A stretch of 64,000 nt of DNA. Source: a candidate division WOR-3 bacterium. GTDB taxonomy: Bacteria; Hydrothermota; 32-111. Under the pieces are notes generated by a model. It searched no databases and was not told the DNA's origin. It worked only from the letters and a program-made list of their open reading frames with translations. A program made the position numbers and the translations under genes. Within the stretch, counting starts at the first letter, position 1, and each line of letters starts with the position of its first letter. This document shows positions 4,519 through 63,464 of this stretch, in pieces. The DNA lies in contig JBDRZU010000002.1 in assembly GCA_039804105.1 (NCBI GenBank), forward strand, positions 160,001-224,000, read 5' to 3'.

Positions 4519-5079
4519 TCAATCTTTTGAAAATTTACCAACAAGTTCACCATAAGAAATGATGTGATTTGTAACAATTTTTAGTATTTTTGTCTCCGTT
4601 AAAGTCGAATCCTGTGGAAGGAATGTATCAAGTGCAAAAACTTTAAAAAAATATCTGTGAGTTCCAAAAGGAGGATGGGGGCCAAAGTATGAATATTGGT
4701 TCAAAGAGTTTAACCCCTGTAAAATACCGTTTCCAAGTCGGAACGAATTTTTCGAAAATCCTTCAGGAATAAAAGAATCGGATGGTAAAATATTAAAAAC
4801 TATCCAGTGTATAAATTTCCCTGCTGGTGCATCGGGATCTTCCATAATTAAAAGTAAAGATTTCGTTTTTTCAGGAATATTTCTGATTTCTATCTTTGGA
4901 GAAATGTTTTCTCCTTTATATGAAAACTTTTTGGGTATAAAAGAATAGTTTTCAAAACTTGAAATGATCTTTAAACTATCTGCTCCACTTTCTTTTACCT
5001 TGAGTTCAGTTTTCGATTCACAACTGATTATTGATAGAAAAAATATAAATAAAAAAGAAAAAAAGAATTTTTTATACAT
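4519..5079 (-). CDS. YbhB/YbcL family (PEBP, Raf kinase inhibitor-like) lipoprotein
   Basis: GENISP, MEDPDAP..KFIHWIVFNI, YFGPHPPFGTHRYFF motifs; signal peptide ending IISC. Confidence 0.9.
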   Translation of the reverse strand: MYKKFFFSFLFIFFLSIISCESKTELKVKESGADSLKIISSFENYSFIPKKFSYKGENISPKIEIRNIPEKTKSLLLIMEDPDAPAGKFIHWIVFNILPSDSFIPEGFSKNSFRLGNGILQGLNSLNQYSYFGPHPPFGTHRYFFKVFALDTFLPQDSTLTETKILKIVTNHIISYGELVGKFSKD

Positions 5080-5086
5080 ATTTTAG

Positions 5087-5176: not shown

Positions 5177-6061
5177 ATGAGGAGAATGGTGTTGCTTTCT
5201 TTTATATTTATCTCAACGATTATGCTCTTTCCTTCTGTACCTTCGACAGAAAATTATCTTTTTGGTATCGGTGATTCTGTTGAAGTTTATGTTGTTGACA
5301 AAAAAGGAGTAAACTCTTTTACATTTACATCGACAACACTTGACGATGGATCTTTCATTCTTATGGTTCCATCAACGACAAAAAGCGGACTTTTCGATTT
5401 AAAAACACAAACTTATTTTACAAACTGGAAAGTGGTAAGTTATAAAAATTTAACAAGAAGAGAGTTTGAGGACTCAATATTTAGAACCTACAAAAGAGAA
5501 TTCCTTGTTGATACAGTTATATTGAATGTTAAATATTATGGTTCCCATACTTATATCAACATATCGACAACACTTGACTCCACAAGATTTGTCAATTTTG
5601 AATGGGGCAAAAATTTTCTATATTATATTTCTCATGTTCAAACACATTTTTTAACAACTCTCGATTCAAATTTAACGATCTATACTATAAGAAAAGGTAA
5701 AAATAATCTTGAAAAGGTTTCCCCATTTGATACCGTATATCCAGGTGATAGGATCTATTTAAAACCACAAACAGTGTCTGTTGTTGGGCAGGTTGTAAAG
5801 GGTGGTTTATATCAATACTCTCCTGACTTTTCAATTAATGACTATATATCACTTGCAGGAGGACCATCTATAGAGGGTGATCTAAAAAATGTCAAACATT
5901 TTGATAAAAATGGAAAAAAGAAAAATGGGAAAGTTGAACCTGAGGATATGATTGTAGTTGGTAAATCTTTGGCGACAAAGATAAAAGATATGACATATTT
6001 TGTTTCTGTCATAATGAATTCAATAATGATCTATGTTTATATCTCGAACATTCTTAAGTGA
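5177..6061 (+). CDS. Polysaccharide export protein, SLBB domain (Wza-like)
   Basis: Signal peptide; YLFGIGDSVEV; VSVVGQVVKGGLY...DYISLAGG SLBB motif; first gene of a Wzx/Wzy locus. Confidence 0.75.
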   Translation: MRRMVLLSFIFISTIMLFPSVPSTENYLFGIGDSVEVYVVDKKGVNSFTFTSTTLDDGSFILMVPSTTKSGLFDLKTQTYFTNWKVVSYKNLTRREFEDSIFRTYKREFLVDTVILNVKYYGSHTYINISTTLDSTRFVNFEWGKNFLYYISHVQTHFLTTLDSNLTIYTIRKGKNNLEKVSPFDTVYPGDRIYLKPQTVSVVGQVVKGGLYQYSPDFSINDYISLAGGPSIEGDLKNVKHFDKNGKKKNGKVEPEDMIVVGKSLATKIKDMTYFVSVIMNSIMIYVYISNILK

Positions 6062-6071
6062 TGGAGGAGTA

Positions 6072-7220
6072 ATGAAGGATACGATCAAATTCATTATATA
6101 TATCATTAACCACAGAAAATTTATACTTATTTCTCTTTCTATAACGATCATTCTTTCTTCTATAATAGCATTTCTTATTCCACAACAGTTCACATCATCA
6201 GTTTCTTTAACACCACCAACTGGTAGTAGTCAATCGTTACTTTCTTCCTTAACATCAATATCTAAGATGGCTGGAAGTTTTTTTGATATCGGAGGATTCT
6301 CAGCGCAAACTGTTGACCTTTACATAGATATATTAAGAAGTAATTCGGTTGTTGACTCTCTTATTTTAAAATATGATCTCCAAAAAAGATATCATTTAAA
6401 AACTATTGAACATACAAGATTAAAAATAAAAAGGATCACAAAATTTGATATCGGTGCTTCGGAGATGCTTACTATCTCTTTCACAGACAGAGATCCCCAA
6501 TTTGCTAAAGATATATGTAACGATTATATATACTACTTAAAAAAACAGATCAATTTAATTAACATTCAAAAACAGCAGGAAAATTTAAAACTTTATGAGG
6601 ATCTTTATAAAAAACAGATTCTAATTGTAGAAGAACTTTCGGATAGATTGAATGAATGGCTTAAAAGGAACAGATCTCTTGGAGTCGAATTTTCAGTCCA
6701 ACAGAAAACCCCATCTATGGTTTCCCTATACGATGAACTGATAAAAGAAAAATCTGAATTTTACAAGATGAAATATTCTCTACCAGATACATCTATGGCA
6801 TTAAAAAACAAGATGTTAAAAATCAAAGAACTTGAAAAATCTGTTGATTCGATATCATATTCCCTATACGAAAAACCGGAAGAGGTTGTAAAATATACTG
6901 AGTTGAAGATAGATATGGAAGTCGCATTGAGAATAAAAAATGAACTTTTAGGACAACTAAATCTTATAAAAAGCAATCTTGAAAAACCAACAGACAATGT
7001 TTTTTTTGTGGATACGGCAACCGTTCCAACGTTGAAAAGTTTCCCTCCAAGAAAGGAGATAGTTATTATATCTTTTCTTCTTATTTTTGTGCTCGAAATA
7101 TTAGTTTTGGGAATAAAATATTATCTTGAGAACAATCTCGAAGATAACGAAAGAAAAGAGTTTTATAAATACTTAAAACTGGTTTTTTATGATCCATTCC
7201 AGAAAAGAAAAGATATTTGA
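6072..7220 (+). CDS. wzz: Polysaccharide chain-length determinant (Wzz/PCP family)
   Basis: Two TM helices flanking a coiled coil; VDTATVPTLKSFPPRK proline motif before the C-terminal TM. Start moved from 6033 to the ATG after GGAGGAG. Confidence 0.85.
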   Translation: MKDTIKFIIYIINHRKFILISLSITIILSSIIAFLIPQQFTSSVSLTPPTGSSQSLLSSLTSISKMAGSFFDIGGFSAQTVDLYIDILRSNSVVDSLILKYDLQKRYHLKTIEHTRLKIKRITKFDIGASEMLTISFTDRDPQFAKDICNDYIYYLKKQINLINIQKQQENLKLYEDLYKKQILIVEELSDRLNEWLKRNRSLGVEFSVQQKTPSMVSLYDELIKEKSEFYKMKYSLPDTSMALKNKMLKIKELEKSVDSISYSLYEKPEEVVKYTELKIDMEVALRIKNELLGQLNLIKSNLEKPTDNVFFVDTATVPTLKSFPPRKEIVIISFLLIFVLEILVLGIKYYLENNLEDNERKEFYKYLKLVFYDPFQKRKDI

Positions 7221-8667
7221 AAATCTCTTTTTGCTTTTACTTATCTCATTTTTTATTATATGTATAATCCTTTTTCTCATTTTTGGTTATAATATATTTG
7301 GAAGTAAAAGAGGATTACTCTTTTCAGCATCTTTTATAGTAATTCTGCTTGCAACCATGTTATCTTTACTTTTATCGTTAAAAGATTTTTCAATACTCTA
7401 CATATTAACTTTACCATTCTTTTTGAGGTTAAATGTAACAAGATTTTATTTTGAACTTTTTCAATTAAAATTCCATTTGATAACAGTATCCATAATCTTT
7501 TTTATAACCGTCGGAACACTTAAAATTTTTATCGAAGGAAAATTTCCGAAAACAAGTGATATCAAGGATTTTTTATTGAACTATTCTTTTGTTCTTATGA
7601 TCACAAGTGGTATAGTGTCTTCTTTAATAACTGAGACAGCTGTTGGAGGAGATAAATTTGTTTCATTTTTTTCTACGATCTTCGCATTTTTAATTCCATT
7701 TTTTATCTTTTTTATCTTTTCAAACGCATTCAACACTATTAACGATATAAAAACTGTTCTTCTATTTTTCATATTCTCATTCTTTCTTAACACTATTTCC
7801 GGTTTTTTAAACATCGTAACAAAATTTGATTTAGTGGAACTATTCCTTAACAGAGCATCATTCAATTTTATAGGTCCAAATGTTTATGCAGCCACCGCCT
7901 TAATTTTTGTTCCAGTAACCTTTTATTTTCTTAGTGAAGGAAAAGGAATCAAAAAATTTTTATTTTTCATATTCTTCATATTCATTAATCTCTCAATACT
8001 GATGACTATCAGCAGAGGTGGTCTTCTATCTTTAGTTTTAATTTATTTTTTATTCTTTTTCATGGTAAAAGATTTCAGAAAAAACGTTGCAATACTTTTT
8101 TATATATCTTCTGGGATTGGTGCCTTGACTTTTGGACTTCTATTCAATGTGATTTCAAGGTTTTTCAATATCTTTACAAGAGCAAAAGTCACTGAATTCA
8201 GTACCCTCATAAGAGTCAACGCATGGCAACTCTCTTTACATCAGATACCCCATCATCCTTTTGGTATAGGTGGCAACCAGTTTCCAAAACTCTGGAGAAA
8301 CCTGGGGGCTTTTCCTGAACAGTTGGTTTTGCATTCCCATAACCTGATTTTGGGTTTAACTCTCGAGTATGGAATAATAGCAACAGTTGGATTCGTGTTT
8401 TTAAACGGTTATCTGTTATACAATCTTTATAAAATCTCAAAAAAGTTTTCTGGAACAATAAAAAATATCTCGATCTCATTTTTTATATCAATCCTTTCCT
8501 TCTTTTTTATGGGAACAATTTCTGAAGGACCAAGAGCACATTTGAACAATGAAAGATTTTTGACAAACGATCCTTTGATAATCTACTATATGTTTCTTGG
8601 AATAGTTTATTCTTTTTTAAAAGTGGTTTCAAATGAAAAAAAAGATACTATTGATAGCACCTCCTGA
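7189..8667 (+). CDS. O-antigen ligase/polymerase family membrane protein (Wzy_C)
   Basis: Polytopic membrane protein; TISRGG, R..AW, HSHNLILGLTLEYGI motifs. Confidence 0.85.
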   Translation: MIHSRKEKIFENLFLLLLISFFIICIILFLIFGYNIFGSKRGLLFSASFIVILLATMLSLLLSLKDFSILYILTLPFFLRLNVTRFYFELFQLKFHLITVSIIFFITVGTLKIFIEGKFPKTSDIKDFLLNYSFVLMITSGIVSSLITETAVGGDKFVSFFSTIFAFLIPFFIFFIFSNAFNTINDIKTVLLFFIFSFFLNTISGFLNIVTKFDLVELFLNRASFNFIGPNVYAATALIFVPVTFYFLSEGKGIKKFLFFIFFIFINLSILMTISRGGLLSLVLIYFLFFFMVKDFRKNVAILFYISSGIGALTFGLLFNVISRFFNIFTRAKVTEFSTLIRVNAWQLSLHQIPHHPFGIGGNQFPKLWRNLGAFPEQLVLHSHNLILGLTLEYGIIATVGFVFLNGYLLYNLYKISKKFSGTIKNISISFFISILSFFFMGTISEGPRAHLNNERFLTNDPLIIYYMFLGIVYSFLKVVSNEKKDTIDSTS

Positions 8668-9709
8668 ATCTGCACATACTTTGGAATGGATAAATTTTTT
8701 AAAAAAACAAGATATATTTAAAATATTCTATATTTCACTCAAAAAAGATTTTAAACCAATAGAGAACAGTTTTGTTATAAATTTTAATTTTCCTTTCTAT
8801 AAACTCAATCTTTTGAAAAGTTATATTAAAGTTCAAAAAATTATAAGAACAGTAAAACCGGATCTTGTTCATGCTCACTATCTTTTTCCCTATGGAATAC
8901 TAACACTCAACGATCAAAAAAAAACTATAATCTCCTTCTGGGGAAGTGATATAACAAACGACTACAAAAATGCTAATTTCTTTTTCAAATATCTTGCTGA
9001 TCTATCCATAAAACAGGCAGATTACATTACCTTTGCCGGAAATCATTTAAAAAAATTTTTTAATTATCAAATCAATGAATCAGACCAATTGATCTGGGGT
9101 GTTGATAAAAATTTTATTGACAGTATAACCCCTTTTGAAAGAGAAAAAATAGGTTTTTCGAAAGATGATTTTATCATCTTAAACTTGCGCTTTATAAGGG
9201 AAATCTTTCAAATTGAGAGAGTTATAAAAACCTTAGAAGAACTGAACAAAAATTATGATAACATTAAACTTATTCTGATAAAAGGAGATGATTCTTCTTA
9301 CTATAGAATGATAAAGGAAAAATGTAAGAACTTAACTTTTATAAAAATCTTAGAAAATCTTTCAAAAGAAAATTTCATATCTCTGATCAAGGGTTGTGAT
9401 TTAACACTTTCACTCTCTTTAAGAGACGGTAGTCCAGTATCTGTTAAAGAAGCGATGATGTGCGAAAAGATCGTTTTATATCAGGATATAGAACCAATGA
9501 AGGAATTCTTTGGACAAAAAGATTTTTTTACTTCTCTGAAAACATTGGACATAAAAGAATTGTACGAAAAGATTTTGTTTTATTATAAAAATAAAGATAT
9601 TTTAAATGAAACAGGGAAAAATATGAAAAAGTTTGCAGAAGAAAACTTTGAAAGTGAAAAATGCTTTAAAAATGGTTTAGAAATTTACAACAAACTTCTT
9701 GGAGAGTGA
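8633..9709 (+). CDS. Glycosyltransferase family 4
   Basis: KPDLVHAHY, FWGSDI, DGSPVSVKEAMMC (EX7E-like region). Confidence 0.85.
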   Translation: MKKKILLIAPPESAHTLEWINFLKKQDIFKIFYISLKKDFKPIENSFVINFNFPFYKLNLLKSYIKVQKIIRTVKPDLVHAHYLFPYGILTLNDQKKTIISFWGSDITNDYKNANFFFKYLADLSIKQADYITFAGNHLKKFFNYQINESDQLIWGVDKNFIDSITPFEREKIGFSKDDFIILNLRFIREIFQIERVIKTLEELNKNYDNIKLILIKGDDSSYYRMIKEKCKNLTFIKILENLSKENFISLIKGCDLTLSLSLRDGSPVSVKEAMMCEKIVLYQDIEPMKEFFGQKDFFTSLKTLDIKELYEKILFYYKNKDILNETGKNMKKFAEENFESEKCFKNGLEIYNKLLGE

Positions 9710-10898
9710 TTTGAACAGAATTTTACATCTTTCAACAATACCAGTATGGGTCATGGGGAAAAGGTCAGGAATGCCTTCAGTAATGAAAACATTAAAATAT
9801 TATGATGAAAAAGGGTTTTATCAACTCTATATATACCCATCAAATAAAAATTCTATAGAAACTTTGTTTAAAAATTGTAGAATAGTATCATTAAAAGTCC
9901 CTGAAATATTTTTAAACCAAAAACATTTAAAATCATACCACCTTTTTAACAAATTAAGATTTATATATTTTTCAACCATTTACCCCATTAAATTAAAAAA
10001 TCTAATAAAAAATTTTAATCCCGACTTTGTTTATGCACATCTACAGTATATGCCTTTGACTTCTTACATACTATTTCGAAGAAGCAAACCGATCTTTGTA
10101 AGGTACTATGGCCTCGTTGATGCTTACAAATATGTTTTAAATAACAGGTTTTACAAATTTGAAGAAAATCTTCTATCTTTCAGATTGAACCTTACAGGAT
10201 ACATTCTTGTGAACGATGGAACAGGCGGTGATGATGTTGCTATAAAACGTGGGGTTGATAGGGAAAAAATTTTATACCTTATTAATGGAATCGATAACTT
10301 TCCCTCACTGACAGAAGAAGAAAGATCTGAGTTGAAAAAAAATCTCAAAATAAATGAAAAACCTGTTTTTCTTTTTCTTAACAGATTATCAAAACTCAAG
10401 GGTATTGATCTTTTTTTGAATTTTTTAGAAAATTTTTATGAAAGAACAAGCGTAACCTTTTTAATAATAGGAGATGGAGATGAAAGAGATAAAATGTTAA
10501 AATTTTTGGATTCAAAAAAAGTTGATTACAGATATATAAGAAGTATAGAACAAAATGAAACTTATAAATATTTTCAAATATCTGATCTGTTTTTATCTTT
10601 CAATATTCTTTCCTCTCTCAACAATCCTGTTCTTGAAAGTATTAAAAATGAAACTCCTGTTTTAAGTTTAAAAAGAGGTTTTAAAACTGAATTCATGAAT
10701 GATTTTATTTTTTCCTTTGATACTGTTAAAGAAATGTCAGAATTCGCAGCACTTTTTCTTTCTATTAGAAAAGATCAAAATGAGATGAATAAGATAAAGG
10801 AAAAACTGAAAAATTTTGAAAAACATTATATTTGGTCGTGGGAAGAAAGGATGAACACTGAATTTGTTTTTGTTAAAGAAAGGTTGAAAAATGTTTAA
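9699..10898 (+). CDS. Glycosyltransferase family 4
   Basis: PDFVYAH, NGID, FLNRLSKLKG, IIGDGDE, NPVLES. A TTG start at 9711 after GGAGAG is more likely. Confidence 0.8.
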   Translation: MESDLNRILHLSTIPVWVMGKRSGMPSVMKTLKYYDEKGFYQLYIYPSNKNSIETLFKNCRIVSLKVPEIFLNQKHLKSYHLFNKLRFIYFSTIYPIKLKNLIKNFNPDFVYAHLQYMPLTSYILFRRSKPIFVRYYGLVDAYKYVLNNRFYKFEENLLSFRLNLTGYILVNDGTGGDDVAIKRGVDREKILYLINGIDNFPSLTEEERSELKKNLKINEKPVFLFLNRLSKLKGIDLFLNFLENFYERTSVTFLIIGDGDERDKMLKFLDSKKVDYRYIRSIEQNETYKYFQISDLFLSFNILSSLNNPVLESIKNETPVLSLKRGFKTEFMNDFIFSFDTVKEMSEFAALFLSIRKDQNEMNKIKEKLKNFEKHYIWSWEERMNTEFVFVKERLKNV

Positions 10899-12144
10899 AA
10901 AATCACTTTTAACCTTTGTAAGTGAGCTGATCATTGTTTTTATAGGGATAGGTACAACAATTATAATCAATAGAGGTTTAGGTCCTGTGAACAAGGGTTA
11001 CTATGCTTATATAATTCTCGTGTCGTCAACTCTTTCTATGGTTCTCGAATTTGGATTTTCTACAGGTCTTTCTTACTATTCGGGGAAAAAGATATCATTA
11101 TCTCAGGACAAATGGAAAACACTTTCCATTATTTTAATGTTTGTTTTTTTTCTAATATCGATTGTAGCGACTTTCCTTTTAATATTATTTTATGATGATC
11201 AGAGAGGGTATTTTATCATTCCATTGTTATTTTTTGTCCAGATATCATCAAAATTCACTCTTGGACTTTATCTCGGATCACTAAAAATAAAACTTTTCAA
11301 CATAATCAGAACACTCCCTATATTCATCGAGATAACATTATTAATAACTCTAATAATTTTAAAAATTCAACTCACACCTGTGAACATATCCCTTGTATAC
11401 TTTTTCTCACTTTTTATTCCACTTGCAATGTCAATATATTTTTTGTTTCCGTTCAAGTTTCAAATTCCTAACATTAAAGAACTTGTATCCATAACCAGAT
11501 ACAGTTTTTTTATCTATCTTGCGAATCTAATGTCTTTTTTAAATTACAGAATCGATATGTTTTTGATATCTTTTTTTCTAAAACCTGAATACCTTGGATG
11601 GTATTCGGTTGCAGTTTTTATAATTGAAAAAACACGATTGTTATCCCAGTCAACCTCACTTGTGAATTTCGCATTAAAAGTAAATCAGGATGTAAAAGAT
11701 TCTTTTGAAATATCAATGAGGATTGTAAACAGCATCAACATTCTTGTTGCAACTTTTATAGTTATAACAGCGTATCCTCTCATAACCATTCTCTACTCTC
11801 CCGCATATAAAGAATCGATAATTCCAATGATCATTCTTGCACCAGCCATACTCTCAAATGGGTATGCAAAAATGTTGTCTTCTGAACTTTCAGGTGATGG
11901 TATTATAAAAGTTCAATTACTCGCTTCGATAATAAGTGTTCTAATAAACATCATTTTAAATCTTGTACTTATACCAAAATTTAAAATCATCGGAGCATCG
12001 ATTGCATCTTTATTTTCATATACTTTAAACACTTTAATAATTTTAACATTCTTTTTGAAACATTACAAAAAGAATTTTAAAAATATGATGATAATAAACA
12101 GAACCGATTTAATTAAAATTATTAACTATTTTAAATCTCTTTGA
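10891..12144 (+). CDS. wzx: Oligosaccharide flippase (Wzx)
   Basis: About 12 TM helices; RGLGPVNKGYY, NYRIDMFLI...LGWYSVA, LIPKFKIIGASIAS. Confidence 0.88.
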   Translation: MFKKSLLTFVSELIIVFIGIGTTIIINRGLGPVNKGYYAYIILVSSTLSMVLEFGFSTGLSYYSGKKISLSQDKWKTLSIILMFVFFLISIVATFLLILFYDDQRGYFIIPLLFFVQISSKFTLGLYLGSLKIKLFNIIRTLPIFIEITLLITLIILKIQLTPVNISLVYFFSLFIPLAMSIYFLFPFKFQIPNIKELVSITRYSFFIYLANLMSFLNYRIDMFLISFFLKPEYLGWYSVAVFIIEKTRLLSQSTSLVNFALKVNQDVKDSFEISMRIVNSINILVATFIVITAYPLITILYSPAYKESIIPMIILAPAILSNGYAKMLSSELSGDGIIKVQLLASIISVLINIILNLVLIPKFKIIGASIASLFSYTLNTLIILTFFLKHYKKNFKNMMIINRTDLIKIINYFKSL

Positions 12145-22052: not shown

Positions 22053-22083
22053 ATGACAACCTCTCATAAATTATACAAAATTT

Positions 22084-26639: not shown

Positions 26640-26640
26640 A

Positions 26641-44720: not shown

Positions 44721-47700
44721 TTGGTAATGTTTTGTTTTAAAACTTTTTACCTTTTACTTTTTTTCTATTTTCAACCCGATACTGTTAAACTTGAAAAAGC
44801 ATACGACTTTTATGTTTTTGAAAATCCCATATATAAAAACTCTTTACAGATACTATCAGAAAAGAAACTCTTAAAAGAAAATGAAGATTTTTATTTTGAT
44901 GGAAAAAGGATCAAGTTTACAAAGAATTTTAAAGATGTTGAGATAATCTTTTTAAAAGTGGATGAACAAATCAAAACCGAAAATTTTAAATACAAAGATC
45001 AACTACAAAAAGAGGAAATTTTTGAGAAAAAAGATGAATCAACAAAAAGTGTCTATATAACAGGCGTGAAAGGTTTCAATGTCTTAAACCAAAACAATAG
45101 AATCGATATAGAACAGGTAACAGATTTTTCAATAAACGGAAAAATTGATTCATTCTGGAGTGTCGAAGGTTACATAAACGATAACTCTTCTACAAACGAC
45201 ATCGGACTAAATGCTCCAATCTATCAGATTGAAAATTTGAAATTCTCTTTGTACAATACATCCGGAACAAAATTTTTTCTTGGAAATTCGAAATTAGAGA
45301 ATAAATGGTCAAAATTTTTAAACCTCAATAAAGATATTTTTGGACTTGGATTTTCTACGAGTTTAAAAAAATATCCTTTATCGTTTTCTTATGCGGCTGA
45401 AAAAGGAAATTTTAAATCATCATCCTTTTTCTGTATCGATGGTATTCTTGGACCATATAGGATAGTAGAAGAAAGAAACCTGTTCGATTATACGATAACT
45501 CCCGGAAGTGAAAAAGTTTATCTAAACGGCCAACTGTTGGAAAACGGAGAGGACAAAGATTATACTATCGATTATTACACCGGTGAATTAACTTTTACAA
45601 ACAAACATATCGTTGATCAAAACTCGTATGTTTATATTGAGTTTCAACAGTTTGATATAATTTCTTTAAACTCTGGATACTATATTTCTTTAGGAGATGA
45701 AAAAAATGATCTAAAAATGTTTTATTCCAGTGAAGGAAACCAGATAAATGATCAAAAATTGAAAGAAGAACTTTCTTTGTATCCTTCAGATTCATCCTAC
45801 ATTCTTCTTAAATCGTATGAATTTGTTGGTGAAAACAGAGGTGATTATTTTTTACAGGATTCGATTTTTGTTTTCGCTGGAGAAGGAAAAGGGGACTATA
45901 AGGTTGAATTTTATTATGTTGGATATGGAAAAGGAGATTATCTGTACTCACCTTCCAATTTTTCCTTTGTATATGTCGGTAAAAACAATGGTAATTATTC
46001 CCCTTTCAGAAGAGTTTCCCTTCCATTTTTTTACCATCTTCTCGATATTTCATTTACAAAAAATATAAAGTATGGTGGTTTTGATCTGGAAATATTAACA
46101 GGCCTTTACAAAAACAATAGATACAATTTACAATCCCAGTTTTTAAAAGATTTTTCGTATTATCTATCTTACAATACAAAAAGATTTTTATTTAAAAATT
46201 TTTCATCCTCATTCTTGTTTCAATACAGAGAGAACGATACCATATACAAAACAAGATGGAACAAAATGGTTAGTTTCGAATACATAAAAAATGATACAAC
46301 TTTTAAAACACCTTTTCGAGAGTTCACTTTTTCGTTTGATCCATCTTTCGAAAATATTTTCAATTCGAACCTTTCCATTTCTAAAATTGACTCCTTCAAC
46401 ACTGTTAAAACTATTATAAATACGGATACATTTTTCAACTATTCTGCAGATTTTAGAACAATCTATTTTATTTTAAAAGATTCTATTTACTATAAAAATG
46501 AGTTCATTTCATTAACAAAAAAATTTAAAATATCAAATTTTTCTGTTTTCATAGAAAATGAAAGTAGAACTCTTTTTTCATATAAGAGAGGTTTAAAAAT
46601 ATTTTCAGACAATAGAAATTTTCTCATGGAATATAGAAACGAAAAAATTTTTGAAGACAGTTTAAAAATTAAAAATATTGATGTATTTAAATTAGAAACG
46701 AACAAATCTGAACGAGAAAATTTTTTAGCACTATTTTCTGGAGAATATAAAGTTTTTGACTACAACGATACAAAAAGGAATATAGTTGCTATAAATACAG
46801 TTTACAAAAAAATATTCACAAATGTTTATGAATATTTTTTAGATACATACATAACATCTCTTTCTTTATACAATATAGTTGAAACTTATGTTTATGTCGG
46901 TAAAGGCAAAGGTGATTATGTTTACGATCCTATAACTAATTCATACATTTATGATAAAATATATGGTGATTATGTACTCATAAAGGAAAACAAACTATCC
47001 AACGACCCCTATTCGAAAAGAATGATCAAAACCTCTTTAAGATTATATCAATTTGAAACTTTTATTAACTTAAACTATTCAGACCTATCAAAAAATCTAT
47101 TAGAAACAAAACAAAATAATTTAAATGAAACAAATTTAAACTTTAAATTTTTTATAGACAAAATCCTAAACAGAAAATTAACTCCTTTTATGGGGTTAAC
47201 ATATGAAAAAATATATTACAAAAATCTATCTTCATTTAAAAATTTTTCTTTGGACTTAGGGATTAAAAACTTACTTGATATTAACTATTCACTTCTCTAT
47301 AGAAACGAAAATGAAAAAAGAGAAGAAATTACAGGAAAATATGATTTGAATTCAAACTCTATCATTTTTGAATTCAATTTGGGCGGGTTAAAACAAAACT
47401 ACAAATTCAAATTCTCTTATGGTTACTTCTATGGATTTTATGATTACGATGAAATAAATTTTTCACCATTAAAAGGAACAAAAGTAGAATTCTTTTCAGA
47501 TATAGAACAAAAAATTATTTCAAATTTTTCTTTCAATCTTATTCCAAAAATCTCATACACATTCTATAATGAAGGAGATGACCTTCCACTGAGTATAAAT
47601 TATAAATACCCTAAAGGGATATTCTTTGAAAATACTCTCTCTATAGTTTTTATTAACGATTTTATTAACTCAAGGATATCCTATATTTTGGATTATTCTT

Positions 47701-47753
47701 TAAGAAATTCTTTAAGACAGAGGGTTCTATTCTCTCTATTTACCTATTTTTAA
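44721..47753 (+). CDS. Large exported/outer-membrane hypothetical protein
   Basis: GPY...PGSEKVYLNGQLL....DYTIDYYTGELTF motif, repeated VGxGxGDY units, terminal Phe. Confidence 0.6.
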   Translation: MVMFCFKTFYLLLFFYFQPDTVKLEKAYDFYVFENPIYKNSLQILSEKKLLKENEDFYFDGKRIKFTKNFKDVEIIFLKVDEQIKTENFKYKDQLQKEEIFEKKDESTKSVYITGVKGFNVLNQNNRIDIEQVTDFSINGKIDSFWSVEGYINDNSSTNDIGLNAPIYQIENLKFSLYNTSGTKFFLGNSKLENKWSKFLNLNKDIFGLGFSTSLKKYPLSFSYAAEKGNFKSSSFFCIDGILGPYRIVEERNLFDYTITPGSEKVYLNGQLLENGEDKDYTIDYYTGELTFTNKHIVDQNSYVYIEFQQFDIISLNSGYYISLGDEKNDLKMFYSSEGNQINDQKLKEELSLYPSDSSYILLKSYEFVGENRGDYFLQDSIFVFAGEGKGDYKVEFYYVGYGKGDYLYSPSNFSFVYVGKNNGNYSPFRRVSLPFFYHLLDISFTKNIKYGGFDLEILTGLYKNNRYNLQSQFLKDFSYYLSYNTKRFLFKNFSSSFLFQYRENDTIYKTRWNKMVSFEYIKNDTTFKTPFREFTFSFDPSFENIFNSNLSISKIDSFNTVKTIINTDTFFNYSADFRTIYFILKDSIYYKNEFISLTKKFKISNFSVFIENESRTLFSYKRGLKIFSDNRNFLMEYRNEKIFEDSLKIKNIDVFKLETNKSERENFLALFSGEYKVFDYNDTKRNIVAINTVYKKIFTNVYEYFLDTYITSLSLYNIVETYVYVGKGKGDYVYDPITNSYIYDKIYGDYVLIKENKLSNDPYSKRMIKTSLRLYQFETFINLNYSDLSKNLLETKQNNLNETNLNFKFFIDKILNRKLTPFMGLTYEKIYYKNLSSFKNFSLDLGIKNLLDINYSLLYRNENEKREEITGKYDLNSNSIIFEFNLGGLKQNYKFKFSYGYFYGFYDYDEINFSPLKGTKVEFFSDIEQKIISNFSFNLIPKISYTFYNEGDDLPLSINYKYPKGIFFENTLSIVFINDFINSRISYILDYSLRNSLRQRVLFSLFTYF

Positions 47754-53020: not shown

Positions 53021-54091
53021 TTAAAGGTATTTTTTATATTTTTCATCTTTTTCAAGAATTTTTAGAAGATTTTTTATTTCCCCAGTTTCGTTCTTTTTAC
53101 ACACAAGTGTTTCATTTTCAGTTCGAACTATTATAAGATCAGATACACCTATAACAGTAACAAGTCCCGAATCAGAGATTATTATACTATTTTTTGAATT
53201 TAAAGAAACAACCTCCCCTTCAATTATATTTCCATCTTTATCCTTGTTTTTTATCCTTTCAAGTGCATTCCAATCACCAACATCATCCCAGTTAAACTGT
53301 GCTCTAACTATAACAATATTTTCTGCCTGTTCCATAACTCCAAAATCGATAGATGTTGCAGGAGAATTCTGATAGAGTTTTAAAATACTCTCTTTCTCAT
53401 CATCCTTTCCTATATGCTTTTCATATTCAATAAGTTCTTTATACATATCAGGTAAATATTTTTGGATACCTTCAAGAAGTGTTTCAGTTTTCCACAAAAA
53501 TATTCCACTGTTCCAGAGAGTATTGCCTTTTTTAAGGTATGAGATAGCTCTTTTCACATTCGGTTTTTCTTTGAAAGATTTTATTTTGTAAACTTTATCA
53601 TCGAGCAACGCTTCACCGAGTTCAATGTATCCATAACCTTCATCAGGTCTTGTTGGTGTTATACCAAAAGTTACAAGATTACCTTTCAAAGCGAACTCGT
53701 ATCCTATTTCTATGGTTTTCTGAAAATCCTTATCAGGGAAAATACTGTGATCAGCAGGACAAATGAGCATAACAGAGTTTTTGTCAATACTTCTTAACTT
53801 CATAGCTCCAAAACCTATAGCAAGTGCTGTGTTCTTTCCAAATGGCTCATAAAGTAAATTCTGTTTATTAAAAATTTCAAAAGAATCTATTGACTCTTTC
53901 AAAATTTCAGTACCTATGATAAATATTCTATCTTTTTCAATAAAGTTGTTCAACCTCAAAAACGTCTCTTCAAGCATAGTTTTTTTTGATATAACTGGAA
54001 GAAGTTGTTTAGGTTTTGTTTTCTTTGACCTTGGCCAAAACCTTTCTCCTCTTCCACCTGCAAGTATAACTGCATATAAATTCTTGTTCAT
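53021..54091 (-). CDS. manC: Mannose-1-phosphate guanylyltransferase
   Basis: ILAGGRGERFWPRS...PKQ, EP..KNTA, PADH, GYGYI, FKEKP, WNSGIF, SIDFGVME, WDDVG.W. Confidence 0.95.
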   Translation of the reverse strand: MNKNLYAVILAGGRGERFWPRSKKTKPKQLLPVISKKTMLEETFLRLNNFIEKDRIFIIGTEILKESIDSFEIFNKQNLLYEPFGKNTALAIGFGAMKLRSIDKNSVMLICPADHSIFPDKDFQKTIEIGYEFALKGNLVTFGITPTRPDEGYGYIELGEALLDDKVYKIKSFKEKPNVKRAISYLKKGNTLWNSGIFLWKTETLLEGIQKYLPDMYKELIEYEKHIGKDDEKESILKLYQNSPATSIDFGVMEQAENIVIVRAQFNWDDVGDWNALERIKNKDKDGNIIEGEVVSLNSKNSIIISDSGLVTVIGVSDLIIVRTENETLVCKKNETGEIKNLLKILEKDEKYKKYL

Positions 54092-58016: not shown

Positions 58017-58046
58017 TCATTCTATTTCTATCTATTCTATTTCTAT
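58017..58046. repeat. 15-bp imperfect tandem duplication spanning the alpha-2-macroglobulin stop codon
   Basis: Minus strand reads ATAGAAATAGAATAG ATAGAAATAGAATGA, 13 of 15 identical. Confidence 0.7.
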
Positions 58047-61000
58047 TATTTTTGAATCGGTATGTCCAAAAATTTCAGGATCATACATTTCAAAAACTGA
58101 GGCAGGTGGGACACCAAATCTTCCAGATACTGTTGCTTTGACAAAATATGTGAAAACATGTTCTCCTTCGTAAAGGTATATAGAACTTGTTAAAACTTTA
58201 TCCCTATAGAACTCTTCATGATAAAAATCCCCCCACCATGAATTTTTGAAATTAAAGCCTGCAAGGTTCAAGAATTCTGTTAGAAACTCCCTCTTTACTA
58301 TTTCAAAACCTGCAGGAATGTTGTCTTCAAGAACAACAAAAGTTCTTGGTTTATCTGTTGTAATTTTTAGTTTGATCTTATAGAATTCTCCCTTTTTGAA
58401 ACTTTTTACTGGTTCATCGTTAATATTTAAATATTCCCTTTCAATTGTAAAACCATTAAACAGTTTTTTTTCTATTTCTGTTTTTGTATATCTGTATTTT
58501 AATGTGTAATAAAATCTGCCTTTTCCTTTTTTTTCAAACTTTAATATATTGATACTATCGTTAAAATTCTTTCCCTCTAAAATATAAGTTGAACCATTAT
58601 CTCTTTTTCCCTTAAAACTCTTTTTATAAAATGTTTTATCATTAAACTTCAAAAATATTTTAAAATCTGTTGGTTCTTTTTCATATATTTTATAGTACTC
58701 GTTCAGAGCCTCAAGAACCAAAGATGTTGTATGTGTATTCAACCAGAATCCATTTTTTAAGTTTTTAAAAATATAGTTAACAACAAACTGTGCATATTCA
58801 TAATTACCTTCTGTTTTTAAAATTGAAGTAAGAAATGTTGCAGTTGCCTTTAAATTGTTGTTAAAAAACCACCAATCTGAAAATTTTTCCTCAAAGAAAA
58901 GATAATCTGATTCAAATTTTGCGTTTGATTTTATTTCAGATAGAAGAGTCTTTTGTTCATTTATTAAAGAATAATTTTTTAGTGTTTCAACCAATCTCGC
59001 CTTTTCTGCAAGATACAGTTTGTCTCTGTTGGTAAATATTTCCTTGATTTTCTCGCGATGGTTCAATCTTCCATATAATGATAAAACATAAAGAGAAAAT
59101 GCTTCCAATGAATATTTTGCATTTAAACTGTATCCCCATAAACTATTATGATTTTCTTCCAACAAACTCTCTAAATAGTTTAAACCTTTTTCTTTTACTT
59201 TGTCACTAATCATATACCCTTTAGCAATTGCATGATAGATAACATACATCGTATACACTGAAAGATACTCATTTTCATAAACATCACTTTCAAAATATTT
59301 GAAACCGCCATTCTCAGATTGAAAAGTTCCTATATCCTTTAAAATTGAAGCAACGAATTTTCGTAAAGTCGTTCCTTTCAATTCTGATAGACTATAAAGG
59401 TTTATAATATCCTCACCTACAATCAGTGGAAAAATTCTTGAAAGTTTTTGTTCCAAACACAGGTACTGATAATCTTTAAGATAATCAAATGGAAGAATCA
59501 TTCCACCTATTAAAGTAGAATTTAGATTTATTTTTATAGAACTTTTACTTTTGTTAACACCTTTTGAAACATTGAAATACTCTATCACTTCAGAACTATC
59601 AGAAGAAGAAAATAACGAAGAATACTCATAAAGATTATGGTTTATTATTGGCAGATTTAAAACCATTCCATCAGTTATCGAATCTTTCTCAACCTTTATA
59701 TATATTTTGGCACTATCTTCGAAAAGCACATTTCCTTTAAAATCCACTAAAATCTTTTGGTCTGAACCGTTAAATTTTTTGGTCTTCTCTAAAAATTCTA
59801 TCTCTTTTGAAAAAATCGTTGCTTTAACATCCCCCTTTTTGTTAGAATTATCAAGTACAACAAACGAAAAATCCACTTCATCAAAAGGTCTCAAGAATAA
59901 TGGGAAAGAAGGACTAACAATAATTTCTTTATCAACTCTTATACTTTTTTCTTTTATATTAAATTTTTCTTCATCAAAAGTAATACACACGATTCTGAAT
60001 TTTCCCATATTATCAGGTAACTTAAACTTTATTTTCAGATCTTTTCTATTCGAAAACTCAATATCCTTTTTGTAAAAAACAAGTGATTTAAAATCTTTTC
60101 TAAATTTTATATCCATTTCTTTTTCAAAATATTCTTCTGTTTTTATATCGGATGATACATCTAAATTTTCCGTGTACTTTTTATCTTTGTAAGATACAGA
60201 ACTCAACTCCTCTGAATGATACCCGTCCATCATCTTAGAACCATAATATCGAAAAATCGATGGAGGATAAAAATTGTCAGAGTTAACGAAACTCACATCG
60301 TTTGAATAATATGAATAAAAAATATTTAAAGGATCATTATAATTATAACCAGTTAACATGAGAACAGATTCATCAACAACAAAAAGAACAGCATTACACT
60401 TCTTTTTTTCATCCGTCTTGAGTTCAACTGTAACAGAATCACCAGGCGAATATTTTTCTCTATCTGTTAACATTTCAAACTTCAATCTTTTCGATTCACT
60501 TGAAACATCTATAAAATGTGTTGTTATCTTTGGATTGTTGTACAAAGAATCAGATTTTAAATTAAAAATTGAAAAGTAAAATCCTCCATAAAAATTTTCT
60601 TCAACAGGTATTTTCAAAAGCAGAGTATCATTATCTTTAAAAGAAAGATTGTCAAACTTAAAGATAGAATCTTTATTTATATAGTAGTAATGTTCAACAT
60701 CCTTATCATTTGAAGTGATTTTCAAAATCACTGTATCTCCAACATTATATTTATCTTTATTTTTTAAAACATGAATTCCACTATCATCGTCATCATAATA
60801 AAAAAATCCCTTATAAAACCTATCTACTATTCTGTCACCGTCATAAAGTAATTCCACTTTATAATATGAATTTTTTGGAAGTTTTATCCAGAAAGAATCA
60901 ACCTTCTGATCTGTAAAAAATTGAAAACTTTTTATTGTATCATGTAACGAATCGTTGTATGTAAAAGGTTTAAAAATATTCAAAATAATTTTTTCTCCTT

Positions 61001-63464
61001 TAACAGGCAAATCATATTCATCAACTACCACAACCTCTATAAGACAAGAATCATCATTTTCAGATATATGAGATATTTTAAGTCCAGCATACCTATCTTT
61101 TATATTTTTTGTAAACGATATATTTTTTGAAACCATTTCCTTATTCAAATCTTTCACAGTTGCAATAAAATTTATAGAAACAGGATTTTTTCTCTTTTCT
61201 ATTGGAATCTTTTCTTTGAACAAAAATTTACCATCACGATCAAGAACATATCTTTTTTCGAAAATATTTTTTTGTTCTTTATCAATTTCAGAATAAATAT
61301 AAAAATTAAAATCGTAAAATTTTTGTGAAAAGAATGGAACTTCTGTTATCTGAAGATAACAGAATAAAGAATCGTTTGCCATTTGAAAACCTGAAAGATA
61401 TTTTGCCTCGATAGAAACTTCTACATCGTCATCATATAAAAATTTATTTTTTGAATTTACAATAACTTCAAACTTGGGCTCTTTAAACTCCTGAACCATA
61501 AAAGATGTTTGACCCACAAAAATCTCTTTAGAATAAAAATTAACATAATAGTAGCCGGTCTTAAAAGTATCCTCTATGCTAAAATTCAATAGAAAAGATC
61601 CGTTTTTATCAAGTTTTATGGATCCTTCTTTTATCTGCTTATATTCTGGATTTAAAATGAAATATTCAATATTCTTTATTTTGGGTAAAAAAATTCTATT
61701 CCCTTTAGATTCTCTTATTATTCCAGTTATCAGAACACTATCGTTTAAAGTGTAAAGATTTCTATCAGTAAACAGATAACCTTTGTAAAAATTCTCACTT
61801 TTTTCAAAATATAATGGAAAAATTAAATTTTTGCTTCCATTTTCCACATAGATAAACCTTGCTGTTTCAGAATTATTTTTTTGAAAAAATTTTATCTCAT
61901 TATTTTTTAACTGAAAGATTCCATCTTTTAGATTCTTACTGAATCTTTCTTTACCATTTTGATCAAATATTTTCAGTTTTACATTACCTTTAAATGTTTG
62001 GTTCGATTCATAATCTGAAACAACAAGAAAACCATTTTTGTTTGATAAAACCCCACTAACTTTTAATGGCGTTTTTTGATAAATAAACTCAAATCCATAA
62101 TCGTTATTATCCAAATAGTATTCAAGATAACCAAAACCAATGTTCTCTTTCAACGAAAATTCTTTTAAAAGATCTATACTATCCGTATATAGAAAATTTT
62201 TATTTACATCAAATTCAAATTTTTTATTTTTCCAGCTTTTGTAATCATTAGCATAATTTAAATTTATAAAATCTTGGATGAATTCTCGTTTGGTTCTTTC
62301 TTTTACATATACTTTAATATTGTTAAGATTCATCAATGAAAAATTCAACATCAAATTGTTACTTTTTCTTAAATAACTTTGGTTGAAAAGAACAAAAGGT
62401 TGATAATCTTTTACAAATATTTTATATTTACCAGGATTTTTTATTTTTTGATTGAAAATGTCTTTCAAATTACCATTGATCTTTAGAAAATACTCTCCGT
62501 CAGGTTTTAGTTCCTTGGTCAGATAAAATATCGTCGACTCATCATGGTAAAAATAATCCAAAATATTTTCTTCTTTGCCATCTGAGACGAATTTTACATT
62601 TTTAATGATTTCATCAACCTTTACCGGTGTAGAAAACTCTATATAAAAAGAGGTTTTTTGATTGAAAATCGGTAAACAGGAATCAGATTTATGAACAAAT
62701 TTGAAATCATCATATATTGAAAATCTCAAAACAATCTTTTCTCTCATGAATTCTTCATTGAAGATTTCCAAAGAATAATCTTTTGCCTTTTTAAAACCTC
62801 CCTTTTCTTTTACCCTAACACAATAAAAAGAGGATGTATCATTTTTACTATAAAAATATTCATAATTGTAATATGTTTCTTTACCTGTTCTTTTTGATTC
62901 TTCAATAATCTTTTCAACCGCTTTATCCCCACATTTCAATATAATACTTTTACTCAAAATCTCAAAAGGAATCTTATAGTTAAAAATTATATAAAAGAAA
63001 GAATCTGAATGGATCTTGTAGTATGAGGTTTTTACGATATTCAAACTCACAGGTCTGATTGTTAAATTAAAATCTTCTGAAAGAACAGAAGAATCCAAAG
63101 ATAAAACACCTTTCTCCAGAATAAATCTATAAGATTGTGATGGTATGAAAGAATCAGTATAAAAAACTATACTATTTTTTCCTTTACTTTTAAAAACACC
63201 TTTTAAAGGTGGATCACATTTATATTTTACATTCAAACTTTCAACATCCTGTAAAGGAAGAATATCCTTTGAAAAAGTAAAAACTATCTCCTTTATTCTT
63301 TCATCAACAAAAACATTACTCTCTGGGATTGTTGAAACAACCTCAATTTTTCCATAATTTGATTCAAAATGACTTATTTTATCTGTATAAACAATGTCAT
63401 TGAACGAAAATAAATTCAACGGTAAAGATATAAAAATAAAAGTGAAAAAATAATAAATCATCAT
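58032..63464 (-). CDS. Bacterial alpha-2-macroglobulin family protein
   Basis: FTDRNLY (MG2), QEFKEPKFEV, TDREKYSPGD, FKLPDN, thioester motif CLEQ at 59448-59459, EDNIPAGFE, PPASVFEMY. Confidence 0.93.
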   Translation of the reverse strand: MMIYYFFTFIFISLPLNLFSFNDIVYTDKISHFESNYGKIEVVSTIPESNVFVDERIKEIVFTFSKDILPLQDVESLNVKYKCDPPLKGVFKSKGKNSIVFYTDSFIPSQSYRFILEKGVLSLDSSVLSEDFNLTIRPVSLNIVKTSYYKIHSDSFFYIIFNYKIPFEILSKSIILKCGDKAVEKIIEESKRTGKETYYNYEYFYSKNDTSSFYCVRVKEKGGFKKAKDYSLEIFNEEFMREKIVLRFSIYDDFKFVHKSDSCLPIFNQKTSFYIEFSTPVKVDEIIKNVKFVSDGKEENILDYFYHDESTIFYLTKELKPDGEYFLKINGNLKDIFNQKIKNPGKYKIFVKDYQPFVLFNQSYLRKSNNLMLNFSLMNLNNIKVYVKERTKREFIQDFINLNYANDYKSWKNKKFEFDVNKNFLYTDSIDLLKEFSLKENIGFGYLEYYLDNNDYGFEFIYQKTPLKVSGVLSNKNGFLVVSDYESNQTFKGNVKLKIFDQNGKERFSKNLKDGIFQLKNNEIKFFQKNNSETARFIYVENGSKNLIFPLYFEKSENFYKGYLFTDRNLYTLNDSVLITGIIRESKGNRIFLPKIKNIEYFILNPEYKQIKEGSIKLDKNGSFLLNFSIEDTFKTGYYYVNFYSKEIFVGQTSFMVQEFKEPKFEVIVNSKNKFLYDDDVEVSIEAKYLSGFQMANDSLFCYLQITEVPFFSQKFYDFNFYIYSEIDKEQKNIFEKRYVLDRDGKFLFKEKIPIEKRKNPVSINFIATVKDLNKEMVSKNISFTKNIKDRYAGLKISHISENDDSCLIEVVVVDEYDLPVKGEKIILNIFKPFTYNDSLHDTIKSFQFFTDQKVDSFWIKLPKNSYYKVELLYDGDRIVDRFYKGFFYYDDDDSGIHVLKNKDKYNVGDTVILKITSNDKDVEHYYYINKDSIFKFDNLSFKDNDTLLLKIPVEENFYGGFYFSIFNLKSDSLYNNPKITTHFIDVSSESKRLKFEMLTDREKYSPGDSVTVELKTDEKKKCNAVLFVVDESVLMLTGYNYNDPLNIFYSYYSNDVSFVNSDNFYPPSIFRYYGSKMMDGYHSEELSSVSYKDKKYTENLDVSSDIKTEEYFEKEMDIKFRKDFKSLVFYKKDIEFSNRKDLKIKFKLPDNMGKFRIVCITFDEEKFNIKEKSIRVDKEIIVSPSFPLFLRPFDEVDFSFVVLDNSNKKGDVKATIFSKEIEFLEKTKKFNGSDQKILVDFKGNVLFEDSAKIYIKVEKDSITDGMVLNLPIINHNLYEYSSLFSSSDSSEVIEYFNVSKGVNKSKSSIKINLNSTLIGGMILPFDYLKDYQYLCLEQKLSRIFPLIVGEDIINLYSLSELKGTTLRKFVASILKDIGTFQSENGGFKYFESDVYENEYLSVYTMYVIYHAIAKGYMISDKVKEKGLNYLESLLEENHNSLWGYSLNAKYSLEAFSLYVLSLYGRLNHREKIKEIFTNRDKLYLAEKARLVETLKNYSLINEQKTLLSEIKSNAKFESDYLFFEEKFSDWWFFNNNLKATATFLTSILKTEGNYEYAQFVVNYIFKNLKNGFWLNTHTTSLVLEALNEYYKIYEKEPTDFKIFLKFNDKTFYKKSFKGKRDNGSTYILEGKNFNDSINILKFEKKGKGRFYYTLKYRYTKTEIEKKLFNGFTIEREYLNINDEPVKSFKKGEFYKIKLKITTDKPRTFVVLEDNIPAGFEIVKREFLTEFLNLAGFNFKNSWWGDFYHEEFYRDKVLTSSIYLYEGEHVFTYFVKATVSGRFGVPPASVFEMYDPEIFGHTDSKIIEIE

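Follow-up and report, generated by a model that had tools for sequence, protein, structure and literature searches.

In the text of a 2025 review (PMC12871550), Bacteroidota's general O-glycosylation system is described as the only known sequence-specific O-glycosylation and as unique to that phylum, with its transferase, core flippase and ligase listed as undiscovered; the core begins with mannose, then a deoxyhexose, and the pathway is likened to O-mannosylation. The sequon measured in P. intermedia is preferentially DS(L/I/V), with R, H, K, W and Y excluded at the third position (PMC10897501; PMC12871550). A motif ratio taken over GTDB genera was reported as enriched 'mainly in Bacteroidota', Fibrobacterota being noted too (PMC12871550), and a preprint predicts that YfhO, which has a PMT-like N-terminus, is the Bacteroidota oligosaccharyltransferase (OTase; bioRxiv 10.64898/2026.07.27.740950). 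Here we analyse a 64,000-nucleotide stretch of a candidate division WOR-3 genome (C2:160001-224000, hereafter the window), in which a gene for a YfhO-like protein lies between genes for a putative flippase and a putative sugar-lipid synthase. Exported proteins of the host carry a marked excess of the Bacteroidota sequon, and the most fitting interpretation of this signal is that a known system extends to further phyla.

Two other described systems bear comparison. PMTs occur with a Dol-P-Man/Ppm1 synthase in eukaryotes and Actinomycetota and, to our knowledge, target Ser/Thr-rich regions without an Asp-led motif. They resemble YfhO in having a GT-C fold and an acidic residue after the first transmembrane (TM) helix, and a polyprenol-monophosphate-sugar donor is predicted for YfhO as well; YfhO differs in its larger periplasmic C-terminal part and in giving no credible match when its profile is searched against PDB sequences. 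The teichoic-acid GT-A/flippase/GT-C systems of Bacillota share PF09586 and a three-component layout with the window genes, and YfhO-like families have been linked to STT3/PglB (PMC10584680). The present finding is partly anticipated by the Fibrobacterota enrichment (PMC12871550) and by the YfhO preprint, which proposes the same role for the same subfamily (a prediction there as here), is confined to Bacteroidota and, as far as its text goes, names no flippase or donor synthase (bioRxiv 10.64898/2026.07.27.740950). The text of the review names none of WOR-3, TA06, Gemmatimonadota or Zixibacteria and gives no conservation test or candidate genes, although its Fig. 2A may already hold values for these groups (PMC12871550). 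A literature search, with most subscription journals outside its coverage, returned no paper on glycosylation in these four groups or on the three-gene cluster, and 'glycosyl' does not occur in a WOR-3 genomics paper (PMC12542636). What is added here is evidence of selection, a measure of how large the excess is beyond Bacteroidota, and genes proposed for the donor and flippase steps.

The source genome (G000; 1.81 Mb, 30% GC, 85% complete) is placed by its sequences in candidate division TA06/WOR-3, outside Bacteroidota: the nearest named homologues of two window proteins are from TA06 (YfhO, 78% identical) and WOR-3 (macroglobulin region, 83-89% identical). Since BamA is encoded in the genome, the host is taken to be a diderm. 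The WOR-3/TA06 phylum belongs to the FCB group together with Bacteroidota, Gemmatimonadota, Zixibacteria, Latescibacterota and Fibrobacterota. Open reading frames (ORFs) were predicted over the whole genome, and the strict motif D-[ST]-[AILVMT] was counted against an expectation derived from each protein's own amino-acid composition, with E[ST]x, N[ST]x and the reversed motif as controls; counts are given below as observed/expected (O/E). Proteins were sorted as exported or cytoplasmic by a hydropathy rule for an N-terminal signal and not by SignalP. Because this rule files some exported proteins, such as the outer-membrane protein starting at 44721, as cytoplasmic, it shrinks the contrast between the two classes.

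The original prediction, made from this stretch alone, was that exported proteins are rich in the sequon, and this holds genome-wide: 332 signal-bearing proteins contain 1094 motifs where 401 are expected (2.73x), compared with 699/612 (1.14x) in the 835 proteins without a signal. The controls proposed with that prediction leave the excess intact, as the exported set gives 0.80 for E[ST]x, 0.81 for N[ST]x and 1.17 for the reversed motif, and shuffling within 20-residue windows yields 436 +- 17 motifs (30 shuffles, maximum 475). The excess is not carried by a few proteins or families: it stands at 483/188 (2.57x) in 223 single-copy families and at 1.66x after removal of the 100 strongest contributors, and among proteins with an expectation of at least 1, that expectation is surpassed in 103 of 120 exported proteins but in 75 of 179 from the cytoplasmic class. 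When 334 dipeptide-hydrophobic classes are ranked, DT-x comes first and DS-x second. Proteins with a lipobox (3.06x) and those with a type IX secretion system (T9SS) tail (2.61x) share in it, whereas 67 motif-defined cytoplasmic ATPases and signalling proteins give 64/77 (0.83x).

Within the window, the hand counts behind the original prediction were exact on recounting, both for the exported proteins (PLD 9 in 845 residues, alpha-2-macroglobulin 13/1810, the 44721 protein 6/1010, Wza-like 5/294, YbhB 2/186) and for the cytoplasmic ones (DinG 0, PilB 1, STAND cyclase 2, malic enzyme 0, ManC 0, PurF 4). These correspond to 35 motifs against 11.9 expected in the five exported proteins (2.95x, Poisson p 4e-8) and 7 against 7.0 in the six cytoplasmic proteins. 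Seven further likely exported window proteins left out of that count give 9 against 6.2 (1.46x, p 0.17), indicating that the exported set was somewhat selected. The sites listed in SecD, SecF, Wzz, YfhO and the permeases are present as described, but a few are conserved or lie on the cytoplasmic side (SecF DSI340, Wzz DTI16, YfhO DTV16).

The third position of the motif in exported proteins was then compared with the measured sequon. Favoured residues are L (3.9), C (3.0), T (2.6), I (2.6), V (2.4), F (2.2), M (1.8), P (1.4) and S (1.4); K, E, D, Y, Q, R and W are depleted, with K, Y, R and W at 0.5-0.7x, and H stands at 0.87x. This preference agrees with that measured in Bacteroidota except at Ala and Gly. 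The flanks, at -3, -2, +2 and +3, are occupied by beta-branched or aromatic residues.

Selection on the motif was assessed in 53 exported (mean identity 64%) and 188 cytoplasmic orthologue pairs between the source genome and a relative, G046. In the exported pairs, the motif Asp is retained at 151 of 165 sites (258 of 359 for Asp preceding a non-hydroxyl residue), the hydroxyl residue at 143 of 165 (581 of 847 in the control) and the whole motif at 138 of 165 (51 of 104 for the E/N versions), with Fisher p values from 1e-7 to 2e-9. No such effect was seen in the 188 cytoplasmic pairs (p 0.2-0.4). Of 88 changes at the Ser or Thr, 40 exchange Ser for Thr or Thr for Ser, compared with 22-25% in controls, although both directions are included in these counts and they are not independent. 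Since Asp and hydroxyl residue are both retained, and in exported proteins alone, some extracytoplasmic factor must need both. Conservation is alike in Gemmatimonadota (68/100 versus 4/21); the samples from Gammaproteobacteria (two exported pairs) and Zixibacteria (five sites) are too small to be read.

The original prediction framed the system as a property of this lineage. The excess is indeed there, but the lineage is not special, as several related phyla show it when signal-bearing proteins are run through the same pipeline, in small and non-random samples. Within the phylum, G046 gives 178/65, G005 266/101 (2.64x) and five other families 147/49 pooled (3.7, 3.0, 4.8, 1.1 and 1.6 singly). 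Outside it, the values are 142/40 for yfhO loci of Gemmatimonadota, 37/17 for cultured Gemmatirosa, 83/47 for Zixibacteria RBG-1 and 23/7 for Latescibacterota loci. A Chitinispirillaceae genome (112/47) reproduces the Fibrobacterota enrichment, obtained with the same statistic and leading to the same inference of a pre-Bacteroidota origin (PMC12871550). Across the other WOR-3, Gemmatimonadota, Zixibacteria and Fibrobacterota samples, the excess is 1.8-3.6x, and it is present from 30% to 66% GC. Controls from outside the FCB group (Fusobacterium, E. coli, Acinetobacter, Listeria, Sulfurovum, Neisseria, two Alphaproteobacteria, three marine Gammaproteobacteria and Treponema) pool to 133/116 (1.14x; 141 proteins, 1.16 Mb), compared with 137/133 for the E control. 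In Listeria, the exported set stands at 10/7 and the control motifs at 1.07-1.27, and no specific D-S/T excess was found in the Acinetobacter and Neisseria controls. Among 57 alpha-2-macroglobulin homologues, the ten closest to that of the source genome give 2.1-3.5x, and named ones from Bacteroidia, Ignavibacteria, Pedosphaera (0.69) and Spirochaetia (Treponema 3/5.5) give 0.2-1.2x. Four more distant macroglobulins (P0170, P0171, P0175 and P0211), probably from other FCB lineages, were at 2.6-4.5x.

The original prediction had entered the window YfhO only as a substrate; our analysis adds it, with two neighbours, as candidate machinery. The PF09586 model covers only its last 90 residues, and its N-terminus has a weak match to PMT_2 (E 1.7e-4). 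The AlphaFold2 model of the protein (pLDDT 96) matches GT-C enzymes only: AftD (Z 23.2, rmsd 5.4, 587 aligned), STT3 (19.5), AglB (16.6), PglB (15.0), Pmt (14.9-15.0, ~370 aligned) and ArnT (14.5), although a common fold in a model would not by itself demonstrate a function. In 830-residue numbering, the invariant residues are Asp37 just after TM1, His147, Gln193, Arg299 and Phe406-Arg407; Asp37 is invariant in a set of 27 sequences and present in at least 90% of 113 homologues. Our FCB profile, built from 27 sequences of which none is from Bacteroidia, matches the full length of the Bacteroides finegoldii YfhO with 348 bits and the Listeria YfhO with 77 bits. Nine motif blocks are common to the window and Bacteroides proteins and mostly not found in Listeria, whose YfhO lacks the GH, HxQ, KFR and GGxH motifs, and a quick tree sets the window and Bacteroides proteins apart from that of Listeria, all on long branches. 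By these sequence criteria, the window protein is an orthologue of the predicted Bacteroidota transferase and falls outside the Bacillota clade, for which Listeria was the one comparator. The B. finegoldii gene adjoins ahcY, the locus that is predicted to encode the OTase (bioRxiv 10.64898/2026.07.27.740950).

YfhO is close to universal in the phylum, with strong profile matches in 116 of 120 genomes, weak ones in three and none in one, and in 26 of 26 Gemmatimonadota genomes; Fusobacterium, E. coli and Acinetobacter have no strong match. Domain cut-offs can miss it: PF09586 did so in G018, a genome that the FCB profile matches at E 7e-190, and YfhO was called absent from P. gingivalis by a Pfam cut-off (bioRxiv 10.64898/2026.07.27.740950). 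PGN_1968 of that species is a glycosylated 94.6-kDa YfhO/PMT-family protein (PMC8729774 Table S3). Strong matches to both yfhO and the synthase are missing in G005, but reading this genome as a natural knockout was rejected, since its flippase gene is cut off where a 1.6-kb contig ends and the absence is an assembly gap. YfhO itself bears a sequon in its periplasmic linker; 52 of 113 homologues have one within 25 residues before the YxPN motif, compared with 15 of 113 for the E control. In P. intermedia, a DST-containing peptide of YfhO (site 728), in the linker before the last domain, is a proven glycopeptide (supplementary Table S2), and its equation with the window linker is by sequence context and not by alignment.

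In the window, yfhO lies in a run of genes on one strand (20455-28226, minus) encoding GT2, GT2, GT4, a PF03706 membrane protein, YfhO, GT2 and GT2. The PF03706 protein is presumably a flippase, to judge from its family, and the 242-residue GT2 downstream of yfhO is a putative polyprenol-phosphate hexose synthase: its best PDB match is the dolichol-phosphate-mannose (DPM) synthase 5mlz (E 6.8e-30, ahead of the next family at E 6.7e-10), none of the NCBIfam equivalogs scored above its cut-off, and homologues at 54-100% identity occur in 39 of 41 genomes of the phylum. Of 80 yfhO loci, seven without a complete ORF and 19 with short flanks were set aside, leaving 54 with at least 3 kb on both flanks, from WOR-3, Zixibacteria, Gemmatimonadota, Latescibacterota and Fibrobacterota. 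A flippase-family gene lies within 1.5 kb in 49 of them, a synthase within 5 kb in 42 and both in 40 (60, 53 and 46 over all 73 loci); the loci are not independent, because 44 of the 80 are from Gemmatimonadota. GT4-like and GT2-302-like genes accompany yfhO in 37 and 29 of the 80 loci. As PF03706 is widespread, occurring in 10 of 14 controls and in four copies in the source genome, the window copy is singled out by gene order only. Neither the synthase homologue of Prevotella, which is 51% identical, nor its one PF03706 gene is linked to yfhO. Flavobacteriales-like loci (L212-L290) usually have yfhO followed by a GT4 gene and a Wzx-like gene with 10-14 TM helices, which associates yfhO with glycan genes in another way, and Zixibacteria-like loci (L011, L012, L047, L056, L063, L065, L068) have a conserved gene run after yfhO-synthase-GT2 which, by gene sizes and TM counts, we would guess to resemble mreC/mreD/PBP/rodA.

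The putative system of the host resembles that of Bacteroidota in its favoured and excluded third residues, its restriction to exported proteins, its substrate families, its YfhO orthologue, whose corresponding linker also bears a sequon, and its DPM-like GT2. It differs in a net excess of 2.7x against about 1.0x in Bacteroidia samples, in the enrichment of lipoproteins and T9SS-tail proteins, and in an arrangement of yfhO with flippase and DPM-like synthase genes in place of ahcY/luxS or GT4-wzx. In the scheme that we propose, ManC would supply GDP-mannose, from which the 242-residue GT2 would load a hexose, probably mannose, onto undecaprenyl phosphate; the PF03706 protein would flip the lipid-linked sugar, and YfhO, through Asp37, would transfer it in the periplasm to Ser or Thr after Asp on Sec-exported chains. 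Neighbouring GT2 and GT4 enzymes might then extend the glycan. ManC and the DPM-synthase-like GT2 are compatible with a mannose-first core. The three-gene cluster common to the related phyla is thus predicted to encode the enzymes that start a Bacteroidota-type coating, in a system that would have arisen before Bacteroidota diverged from WOR-3, Gemmatimonadota, Zixibacteria and Fibrobacterota. We regard it as likely that the exported motifs are modified with an O-glycan and, given such a modification, equally likely that YfhO is the enzyme; taken together, Bacteroidota-type general O-glycosylation with the window YfhO as transferase is the probable explanation of the excess. The original inference, that a diderm outside Bacteroidota uses the same sequon, gains support from the surviving controls, purifying selection, the matching third position and the YfhO orthologue.

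Several observations weigh against this reading. Bacteroidota, intended as the positive control, did not behave as one: named Bacteroidia records give 190/201 (0.94x) in 141 proteins, Flavobacteriales-like loci 138/133 (1.04x), and Asp is conserved at 76 of 88 motif sites versus 463 of 561 control sites. With proteome-wide frequencies, the Bacteroidia values (1.08-1.28) fall inside the range of the negatives (1.13-1.99), so that the enrichment reported as 'mainly in Bacteroidota' (PMC12871550) was not reproduced on these small, non-random samples. Bacteroidia counts are overdispersed (chi2/n 3.5 versus 0.95), from one protein with 18 motifs against 2.1 expected to several SusC/SusD-like proteins with zero. 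The P. gingivalis glycoproteome points to selection against sequons in surface proteins (PMC8729774), which would cancel a net excess. Bacteroidia therefore glycosylate without one, enrichment is not a required signature and is a weaker diagnostic, and the argument from the source genome rests on the difficulty of explaining its excess otherwise. Further, the third residue is not enriched in Ala (1.14) or Gly (0.74); hydropathy topology of membrane proteins does not separate outside (1.69) from inside (1.50), and in six proteins anchored by motifs the counts are 5/2.3 for periplasmic and 4/5.7 for cytoplasmic segments; WOR-3 family f20 gives 4/4 in signal proteins and 61/28 in the heuristic cytoplasmic class; and in Bacteroides and Flavobacteria yfhO lies apart from the flippase and DPM-like genes.

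A first rival explanation keeps protein O-glycosylation and assigns the flippase-YfhO-GT2 cluster to a glycolipid or wall polymer, with the transferase sought elsewhere. Candidates are a 705-residue YfhO paralogue (G000:C2:44616-46733, minus), a 519-residue PMT_2 protein adjoining the rRNA operon (G000:C1:1152572-1154131, minus) or a Wzy_C protein; a 424-residue 11-TM protein (L166:1135-2409) is another GT-C candidate. Bacillota YfhO glycosylates teichoic acid (PMC10584680), the best fold match, AftD, extends glycans, and G031 has the complete cluster at 61/50 (1.22x). In eight family-f11 genomes (G027, G051, G056, G060, G072, G080, G097 and G100), a second, YfhO-like copy is found at a distance of 1.4-3.7 kb from lpxC, a possible link to lipid A or envelope modification. 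We nevertheless consider this assignment unlikely, as YfhO is near-universal in the phylum and much closer to that of Bacteroides than to that of Listeria, the 705-residue and PMT_2 proteins lack most of the shared motifs, and P. gingivalis, said to be without YfhO, has PGN_1968. PglB/STT3-type N-glycosylation was rejected, with no PF02516 match in the 85% complete genome and N[^P][ST] at 1.06x. PglL/PilO O-oligosaccharyltransferases are Wzy_C proteins with domains specific to PglL and act on disordered regions without a sequon; the source genome has two Wzy_C matches.

The selected motif might instead receive a different Ser/Thr modification in the periplasm (phosphoglycerol, phosphoethanolamine or a phosphosugar) or be recognised by a sorting or chaperone factor. 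Retention of Asp and hydroxyl residue would suit any O-modification, the excess is far above that in Bacteroidia, and position 3 differs for Ala and Phe; yet motif and exclusions coincide with the sole known sequence-specific O-glycosylation motif, in relatives that have YfhO of this subfamily and a linker site homologous to that of the window protein, and we hold this to be improbable. More improbable still is an unmodified structural preference of beta-rich exported proteins (Asx/ST turns of beta-hairpins or metal-binding loops). The flanking residues, the mild enrichment of two Leptospira macroglobulins (1.9x and 2.2x) and a largest paralogue family of 39 members speak for it. An Asx turn would tolerate Asn for Asp, however, and Asn is no substitute here; single-copy families are equally enriched, same-fold macroglobulins of Treponema, a Spirochaetia record, Pedosphaera and Bacteroidia stay at 0.2-1.2x, and Fusobacterium, a low-GC diderm, gives 30/30. 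That the excess is an artefact of composition, low GC or gene and signal calls is largely refuted and hardly credible: gene calls and localisation are heuristic, and ORF calls in high-GC loci are noisy, but composition was controlled per protein and per 20-residue window, the excess spans a wide range of GC, and misfiled localisation would blur the contrast and not create it.

If glycosylation by YfhO is right, the system covers at least five phyla, and gene order names a candidate donor synthase and flippase that are unlinked in Bacteroides, making a 15-year-old question testable in tractable strains, including cultured Gemmatimonadota. The motif statistic would also offer a clue to phage hosts and a warning for metaproteomics in these phyla. 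We put forward tentatively, as rather less than an even bet, a wider picture: D-S/T O-glycosylation would be ancestral to the FCB group and heavier in WOR-3, Gemmatimonadota and Fibrobacterota than in Bacteroidota; the three genes would be its core machinery, adding a single mannose in PMT style from undecaprenyl-phosphate-mannose by a sequence-reading GT-C enzyme; and O-glycans would be the main surface sugar coat in this TA06 class, in which no lipid A genes were found.

The features of the window are collected in Table 1. Families that are proven glycoproteins in Bacteroidota and also occur in the host are SecD/F (glycosylated in P. gingivalis, PMC8729774), Wzz, macroglobulin (glycosylated in P. 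intermedia and P. gingivalis), FtsX, BamA and YfhO. The three periplasmic sequons of SecF (31118-32428) lie in a periplasmic insertion of ~150 residues. Wza-like and Wzz are likewise predicted substrates; the Wza-Wzz-Wzy cluster, which in the window contains wzx without metG, in contrast to the LFG-type locus of Bacteroidota (metG, wzx and glycosyltransferases) that serves the outer glycan, may be unrelated to the protein glycan or may extend it. An Rfam scan gave nothing beyond the four tRNAs.

Table 1. Features of the window (positions within the 64,000-nucleotide stretch; roles of proteins are predicted)
Feature	Position	Strand	Remarks
YfhO-like GT-C membrane glycosyltransferase; predicted protein O-glycosyltransferase	22084..24600	-	PF09586; 838-aa ORF, 830 aa from second Met
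DSV sequon in YfhO periplasmic linker	22402..22410	-	aligned with DSL/DST of Bacteroides, Bernardetia, Flavobacterium
LPG_synthase_TM family protein, 304 aa; predicted lipid-linked-sugar flippase	24566..25480	-	PF03706
GT2 (242 aa) resembling dolichol-phosphate-mannose synthase; putative synthase of polyprenol-phosphate hexose (mannose)	21339..22067	-	
GT2, 314-aa ORF, rhamnosyltransferase-like among weak matches; candidate for second sugar	20455..21399	-	near yfhO in 15/80 loci
GT4 (388 aa), GT2 (226 aa), ArnC/GtrB-like GT2 (302 aa), upstream in yfhO gene run	25473..28226	-	
ManC, mannose-1-phosphate guanylyltransferase; predicted GDP-mannose supplier	53021..54091	-	TIGR01479 E 1.3e-97, N-terminal domain only, below curated cut-off
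Alpha-2-macroglobulin; predicted substrate	58032..63464	-	13 sequons vs 4.4 expected
Secreted PLD with lamin-tail and T9SS-like C-terminal domains; predicted substrate	28223..30760	-	9 sequons vs 3.6 expected
Probable outer-membrane protein, no Pfam match; predicted substrate	44721..47753	+	6 sequons vs 2.4 expected
SecF and SecD; predicted substrates	31118..33972	-	SecF 3 periplasmic sequons and 1 conserved membrane motif; SecD 3
Two MacB/FtsX permeases; predicted substrates	38266..40712	-	2 and 3 sequons in MacB periplasmic part
YbhB/PEBP lipoprotein-like protein; predicted substrate	4519..5079	-	2 sequons vs 0.3 expected
Capsule-type cluster: Wza-like, Wzz, Wzy_C ligase/polymerase, two GT4, Wzx	5177..12144	+	Wza-like 5 sequons, Wzz 4
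tRNA genes Lys, Arg, His, Pro, cluster of four	51658-51994	-	Rfam
1288-aa cyclase-NTPase-TPR protein (named so in the original prediction)	54138-58004		

Some further observations concern the envelope of the host class and possible experimental material. No lpxC was found in the source genome or in any of 10 genomes of its class, compared with its presence in 48 of 50 other genomes of the phylum, and lpxB is missing from four of four class genomes and present in G023. In the source genome skp is followed directly by fabZ (bamA-skp-fabZ, G000:C1 ~89-93 kb, L169), and the source class may be diderm without lipid A. A 1785-residue exported protein with 18 sequons (G000:C1:151396-156816) has a weak match to SprA_N (E 3.7e-7), a model that matches nothing in the 14 controls; its presence beside 18 proteins with T9SS-like tails suggests that secretion of a type IX-like kind takes place. 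Finally, the Bacteroidia protein with 18 motifs against 2.1 expected is a lipoprotein-like protein of 640 residues from Phocaeicola (L083:1243), and it is a good reporter substrate.

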